In this document: positions 50,201-50,656 of the stretch, one piece after another
Layout: every line of letters starts with the position of its first letter
How positions within the stretch are numbered: position 1 is the stretch's first letter
From: Escherichia phage AV112
Sequence record: OR352942.1
Direction: 5' to 3' (one strand)
Length of the DNA: 64,000 bases
Made by a program: the position numbers and the translations under genes
Notes under the pieces: generated by a model
Seen by the model: only the letters and a program-made list of their open reading frames with translations
Databases searched by the model: none
Told to the model about the DNA's origin: nothing

Positions 50201-50656
50201 TTATTTTAGATCTTCGGCCCAATCTAGTTTTAAGGGTTCTTTGTATTCACGGTCGAGAATAACCGGAATAGCTACATCACCACTGAATGATAGTTGGCCA
50301 ACGTTATATGATAACGTTATATGTGGAGTGTAGTCGTCGAAATCATGAGTAGCACCTAAAGCTCGTGCATACTGATGACGACATCTAAGATATTCGGAAT
50401 CAAGAACTAAAACCAGTACAGCGCCGTCGTCAGTTTTCCATACCTCAAGGTGTCCTGATTCGGCAACAGAATAACTACCACTAGATGTAGTATATGGTAT
50501 GTTTACACGTGAATAACAAATTGTTGAATGAAGCTTTTCACGTGGTACTGGATTAGGAATTCTTAATTTACGCTGGAGGTCTTCCAGCGCATCAAGTGTT
50601 AATTCCGAAAATTTAGCTGCGACGTAGAGGCCTTGTGAAAAGTCCTCAAATTTCAT
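50201..50656 (-). CDS. 2H-phosphoesterase-fold protein in the T4 57B position (Acb1-like anti-CBASS nuclease candidate)
   Basis: Two H-x-T/S motifs (HSTICYS and HITLSY) typical of the 2H phosphoesterase fold; 151 aa; lies between ipI and 57A. Confidence 0.55.

Follow-up and report, generated by a model that had tools for sequence, protein, structure and literature searches.

Assignment of the gene 57B homologue of Escherichia phage AV112 to the anti-CBASS family Acb1

Does the small reading frame lying next to the tail-fibre chaperone gene 57A in Escherichia phage AV112 encode an enzyme that destroys cyclic oligonucleotide immune signals, or does it encode an enzyme acting on RNA ends, as the name "RNA ligase" attached to many of its relatives would have it? 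The window analysed here is a stretch of 64,000 nucleotides from sequence record OR352942.1, for which an earlier note had proposed a candidate Acb1-type anti-CBASS nuclease at 50201-50656. The reading frame was found at the coordinates given; it lies on the minus strand, which the note had left unstated, running from an ATG at 50656 to a TAA stop at 50203-50201 and encoding 151 aa. From the comparisons set out below, we hold with high confidence that it is acb1, the orthologue of T4 gene 57B in a T4-like Mosigvirus, to which a cyclic-nucleotide-cleaving anti-CBASS role can be assigned by homology.

50201..50656, minus strand: acb1 (gene 57B) coding sequence, 151 aa plus TAA (ORF list, PF23474, PDB 7T26, T4 NP_049750)

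Homology to Acb1 and the inherited RNA ligase label

Acb1 was named by Hobbs et al. (2022), who followed a 3′3′-cGAMP-degrading activity through activity-guided fractionation and found it to be encoded by T4 57B (PMC9117128), which confirms the equation of T4 57B with Acb1 made in the earlier note. T4 Acb1 and nine homologues cleave adenosine-containing cyclic di- and trinucleotides (3′3′-cGAMP, cAAA), not cGG or cA4, in a metal-independent manner; a T4 acb1 deletion mutant showed raised sensitivity to CBASS, and Acb1 protects T4 in vivo (PMC9117128).

The Acb1-type identity of the AV112 protein is supported by three matches. First, Pfam PF23474 "Anti-CBASS protein Acb1" was matched at 198.1 bits (E 7.4e-59, against a cut-off of 27), with residues 8-149 covering profile positions 1-144 of 144, i.e. 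end to end. Second, the PDB search returned the Erwinia phage FBB1 Acb1 structures (7T26/7T27), to which residues 9-148 align at about 64% identity (E 3.5e-59). Third, the alignment to T4 57B/Acb1, suggested in the earlier note as a check, was run and showed 130 of 151 residues (86%) identical to T4 gp57B (NP_049750.1) and 140 of 151 similar, with no gaps and an E value of 4e-103. As annotated, the AV112 protein is one residue shorter than T4 Acb1 at the N-terminus and differs from it by 21 substitutions. FBB1 Acb1, for its part, shares the 2H fold and the active site with the AV112 protein by homology, yet differs at two base-stacking positions, with F in place of W73 (T4 W74) and Y in place of F106 (T4 F107), and has one additional residue after position 78.

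Single-sequence AlphaFold2 prediction of the AV112 protein gave an unusable model (mean pLDDT 40.9, pTM 0.31), so the fold is assigned from the sequence match to crystallised FBB1 Acb1. By homology to 7T26/7T27 (64% identity to a 1.1 Å crystal structure), the protein is predicted to have a U-shaped pocket within a compact fold of the 2H phosphoesterase type.

In the phage collection, tblastn matched the AV112 protein in 1470 records, with 83 at 99% identity or above and 582 in the 80-90% band, the latter including the listed T4-like (Tequatrovirus) records. Proteins identical to AV112 Acb1 occur in other deposited genomes. Over positions 49400-51700 (2.3 kb), identity to Escherichia phage AV113 (OR352943.1) is 100.0%; AV113 belongs to Mosigvirus (Straboviridae, Tevenvirinae) and was obtained from wastewater in Denmark with an ESBL E. 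coli as host. In its record the acb1 frame bears no label beyond "hypothetical protein, T4-like phage protein, T4 GC1584". The gene and its family are already known, and the phage genome is already public.

The competing label needs to be considered here. PHROG 755, which was matched strongly, carries the inherited name "RNA ligase", and RefSeq records give the same label to 57B. If the label described the function, the protein would be a 2′-5′ RNA ligase or RNA 2′,3′-cyclic phosphodiesterase of the LigT type active at RNA termini (in tRNA repair, for instance), and acb1 does have a group of 10 clustered tRNA genes at a distance of about 1.7 kb. LigT enzymes (PF13563) have the 2H superfamily and two H-x-T/S motifs in common with the AV112 protein, but act on RNA ends and not on cyclic oligonucleotide signals. 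When Pfam was rescanned at E 10, the only match besides Acb1 was indeed PF13563 (2_5_RNA_ligase2), with an E value of 0.026; at 15 bits, however, it falls below the cut-off of 27 and spans residues 76-131 only, against 198 bits over the full length for the Acb1 model. The NCBIfam search returned no match for AV112 Acb1, nor for either of the ip-like proteins encoded next to it. Moreover, the residues that stack and read cyclic dinucleotides, as well as the lid, are all conserved in the AV112 protein, and the T4 orthologue was experimentally identified as a cGAMP-cleaving enzyme. We therefore regard a LigT-type function as extremely improbable and reject "RNA ligase" as a label inherited from the superfamily rather than a tested function.

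With the Acb1 assignment preferred, the main consequence is one of naming, and the significance of the finding beyond correct annotation is small. AV113 and most related records say "hypothetical protein" or "RNA ligase", where the proper name would be anti-CBASS phosphodiesterase Acb1. An intact acb1 predicts phage resistance to many CBASS systems together with sensitivity to Panoptes-type guards, and such a prediction helps in choosing phages for therapy or in interpreting host range.

The AV112 copy is full length, with neither a frameshift nor a premature stop, in contrast to phage Bas43, for which a naturally disrupted acb1 has been reported. Nucleotide identity to T4 acb1 is only 74.8%, and 87 codons differ between the two genes, 66 of them synonymously and 21 non-synonymously. 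This pattern shows purifying selection on AV112 acb1, as expected for a working gene.

Catalytic motifs, ligand-contacting residues and predicted mechanism

The two H-x-T/S motifs reported in the earlier note are present, as H43-S-T45 and H112-I-T114, and they are the only two in the 151-aa protein. Yet when the residues of the protein were shuffled 20,000 times, 14% of the resulting sequences had at least two H-x-[TS] motifs. By themselves, the two motifs are thus within reach of chance and weak as evidence, and the identification must rest on homology.

50522..50530, minus strand: catalytic H-x-T motif 1, H43-S-T45 (T4 H44/T46), invariant in the 9-sequence alignment (role, PMC9117128)
50315..50323, minus strand: catalytic H-x-T motif 2, H112-I-T114 (T4 H113/T115), invariant in the 9-sequence alignment (role, PMC9117128)
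50204..50227, minus strand: C-terminal lid, residues 144-151 (T4 145-152), LDWAEDLK, including the stacking W146 (T4 W147)

T4 Acb1 is a 2H phosphoesterase whose HxT/HxT tetrad is formed by H44, T46, H113 and T115; Y12, W74, F107 and W147 are its base-stacking aromatics, E141 contacts adenine N6, and the ligand is covered by a lid made of residues 145-152 (PMC9117128). The lid was found to be needed for activity (bioRxiv 10.1101/2025.08.21.671373). All nine T4 residues named for catalysis or base recognition are present in the AV112 protein at position n-1: the tetrad as H43, T45, H112 and T114, the stacking aromatics as the identical Y11, W73, F106 and W146, and the adenine-contacting residue as E140. 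The lid, LDWAEDLK, is identical to T4 LDWADDLK at seven of eight positions, the sole change being D to E, and the two C-termini coincide. Thus the tetrad, the stacking residues, the E141 equivalent and the C-terminal lid of T4 Acb1 are all common to both proteins.

A wider comparison was made by aligning nine sequences, namely the AV112 protein and those of T4, FBB1, Acinetobacter phage Acj9, Aeromonas phage 50AhydR13PP, Vibrio phage D490, Klebsiella phage KP27, Vibrio phage vB_VmeM-32 and the RB49-like phage G5211. Across these nine homologues, whose identity goes down to 26%, 12 alignment columns are invariant, and they include Y11, H43, T45, H112 and T114. As a separate observation, the homologue in KP27 (Slopekvirus) is annotated as 207 aa (1459-2082 of the KP27 sequence compared) and has a C-terminal extension of about 55 residues past the end of the other Acb1 proteins, so that the usual C-terminal lid would be followed by an extra segment.

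The substrate range, chemistry and in vivo effect of AV112 Acb1 are those expected from its orthologues in T4 and FBB1. On this basis, AV112 Acb1 would be a small metal-independent enzyme of the 2H fold whose U-shaped pocket takes cyclic di- and trinucleotides with at least one adenosine, such as 3′3′-cGAMP, cUA, cAAA and cAAG. The bases would be stacked by Y11, W73, F106 and W146 and the adenine N6 read by E140, while the C-terminal lid would shut over the ligand. The strained ligand would then have its adenosine 2′-OH positioned to attack the 3′-5′ bond, with H43/T45 and H112/T114 acting as two His/Thr pairs in acid-base catalysis of the attack, and the route would lead through a 2′,3′-cyclic phosphate to a linear product with a 3′-phosphate. 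With the second messenger of the host CD-NTase destroyed, CBASS effectors would be left without their activator and stay inactive, and the infected cell would not be killed before the phage cycle is completed.

The same breadth of specificity should expose the phage to Panoptes-type guards, which are fired by degradation of decoy cyclic nucleotides. In work later than that of Hobbs et al., T4 Acb1 was also shown to degrade 2′3′-c-di-AMP and cA3 and so to trigger both type I and type II Panoptes guards, and phages evade Panoptes through acb1 inactivation. The same trade-off is predicted for AV112 with its intact acb1. Could the Mosigvirus enzyme differ from T4 Acb1 in this respect? A homologue with a shifted substrate range might be narrowed, sparing 2′3′-c-di-AMP or cA3 and avoiding Panoptes, or it might be broadened; the 21 amino-acid differences from T4 Acb1 leave room for such a change. 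A precedent is offered by 2H PDE-9 (9Q2G), a 2H phosphodiesterase of the structural group of T4 Acb1, which cleaves 3′3′-cGAMP, largely spares 2′3′-c-di-AMP and has an N-terminal rather than a C-terminal lid; its selectivity maps to the enzyme core, which is reported to set substrate selectivity in this group (bioRxiv 10.1101/2025.08.21.671373). Nevertheless, none of the nine named catalytic or ligand-contacting residues is changed between T4 and AV112, and the substitutions are mostly conservative and scattered. Besides, 2H PDE-9 is very distant from the AV112 protein, its entry, "Anti-CBASS protein Acb1", being only a marginal match in the PDB search (E 0.0023). We therefore consider a shifted range very unlikely, and equally unlikely is the specific form in which the Mosigvirus Acb1 has a different profile from T4, for example being weaker on the Panoptes decoys 2′3′-c-di-AMP or cA3; the conserved active site gives no hint of it. 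If that were true, the phage could, through its reduced decoy activity, overcome CBASS and leave the Panoptes guard untriggered.

Gene order, ip-like genes and the variable locus

The surroundings of AV112 acb1 resemble those in T4. Along the minus strand, gene 2 is followed by gene 3, gene 1 (dNMP kinase), 57A (the tail-fibre chaperone gene, recognised by Pfam PF17594 GP57 with an E value of 1e-22), acb1 and two small genes, and then by the tRNA region, in which homologues of trna.4, trna.3 and trna.2 lead to ten tRNA genes. As in T4, acb1 lies directly downstream of 57A and gene 1. T4 and five of the six other Straboviridae genera sampled (Acinetobacter, Aeromonas, Vibrio, Klebsiella and RB49-like phages) likewise have 3-1-57A-57B in this order; the exception is vB_VmeM-32, in which the acb1 homologue is located elsewhere.

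50654..50658, minus strand: TAATG junction at which the 57A stop and the acb1 start share one base, read from the sequence
49861-50124, minus strand: ip-like gene 1, 87 aa, start MKTYKEFIAE, phrog_13302 (function unknown)
49525-49797, minus strand: ip-like gene 2, 90 aa, start MKTFKEFINE, phrog_7673 "internal head protein"

The overlap of the 57A stop with the acb1 start (TAATG) suggests that the two genes are co-transcribed and translationally coupled.

The earlier note had placed the gene between ipI and 57A, which is broadly right but exact on one side only. Upstream, on the 57A side, the placement holds, as 57A ends at 50656 and is preceded by gene 1 and gene 3; downstream, AV112 has two ip-like genes that are not orthologues of ipI, so that the neighbouring internal-protein genes are different genes from the one in T4. 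With T4 IPI, both have only the N-terminal leader MKT[YF]KEF in common. We take these leaders to resemble the T4 internal-protein leader that targets the capsid and carries an I-x-E cleavage site for the prohead protease. The 87-aa gene was found in only 35 phage records and the 90-aa gene in 182. T4 ipI is an anti-restriction gene against GmrS/GmrD, and ipI and acb1 of T4 were described as an anti-defence island (Hobbs et al., PMC9117128). The T4-style arrangement of ip and acb1 is kept in AV112 with different ip genes, and the two ip-like genes are candidates for injected anti-defence proteins at a variable locus.

Within the 76-nt gap separating acb1 from the next gene, a hairpin of 12 bp was found on the minus strand at 50153-50179, with a dG of -19 kcal/mol and a z score of -4.0, and none of 200 shuffles matched it. 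It overlaps a promoter-like TTTACA-17-TACTAT with TG, running from 50187 to 50159. A hairpin at the same place is present in T4 (13 bp, z -3.4) and in Klebsiella phage KP179, where the outer stem sequences differ and still pair. A consensus scan detected no intrinsic terminator directly after acb1, the hairpin there being without a U-tract. The hairpin could act as a 3′-end stabiliser of the 57A-acb1 transcript, or it could be a structure tied to the ip promoter.

Across 48609-53187, nucleotide identity to T4 is mosaic. It is high in trna.2 (95.8%) and trna.4 (98.4%) and lower in trna.3 (65%), acb1, 57A (66%), gene 1 (68.5%) and gene 3 (62%). Near-identity over such short segments suggests that lineages of Mosigvirus and Tequatrovirus have recently recombined around the variable ip locus.

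The trna.3 homologue (48899-49318, minus strand) is given two different starts. The mechanical ORF list begins it at a TTG at 49318, giving 139 aa and an overlap with the trna.4 homologue, and the deposited AV113 annotation begins it at an internal ATG at 49279, giving 126 aa; the coordinates from the ATG at 49279 were used for the PHROG scan and for the comparison with T4 trna.3.

Finally, the tRNA cluster at 47684-48511 on the minus strand comprises ten genes (Arg, Asn, Tyr, Met, Thr, Ser, Pro, Gly, Leu and Gln). Compared with the eight of T4, Asn, Tyr and Met are added and Ile is missing. The homing-endonuclease gene segB interrupts the T4 tRNA cluster, and the AV112 cluster has none.
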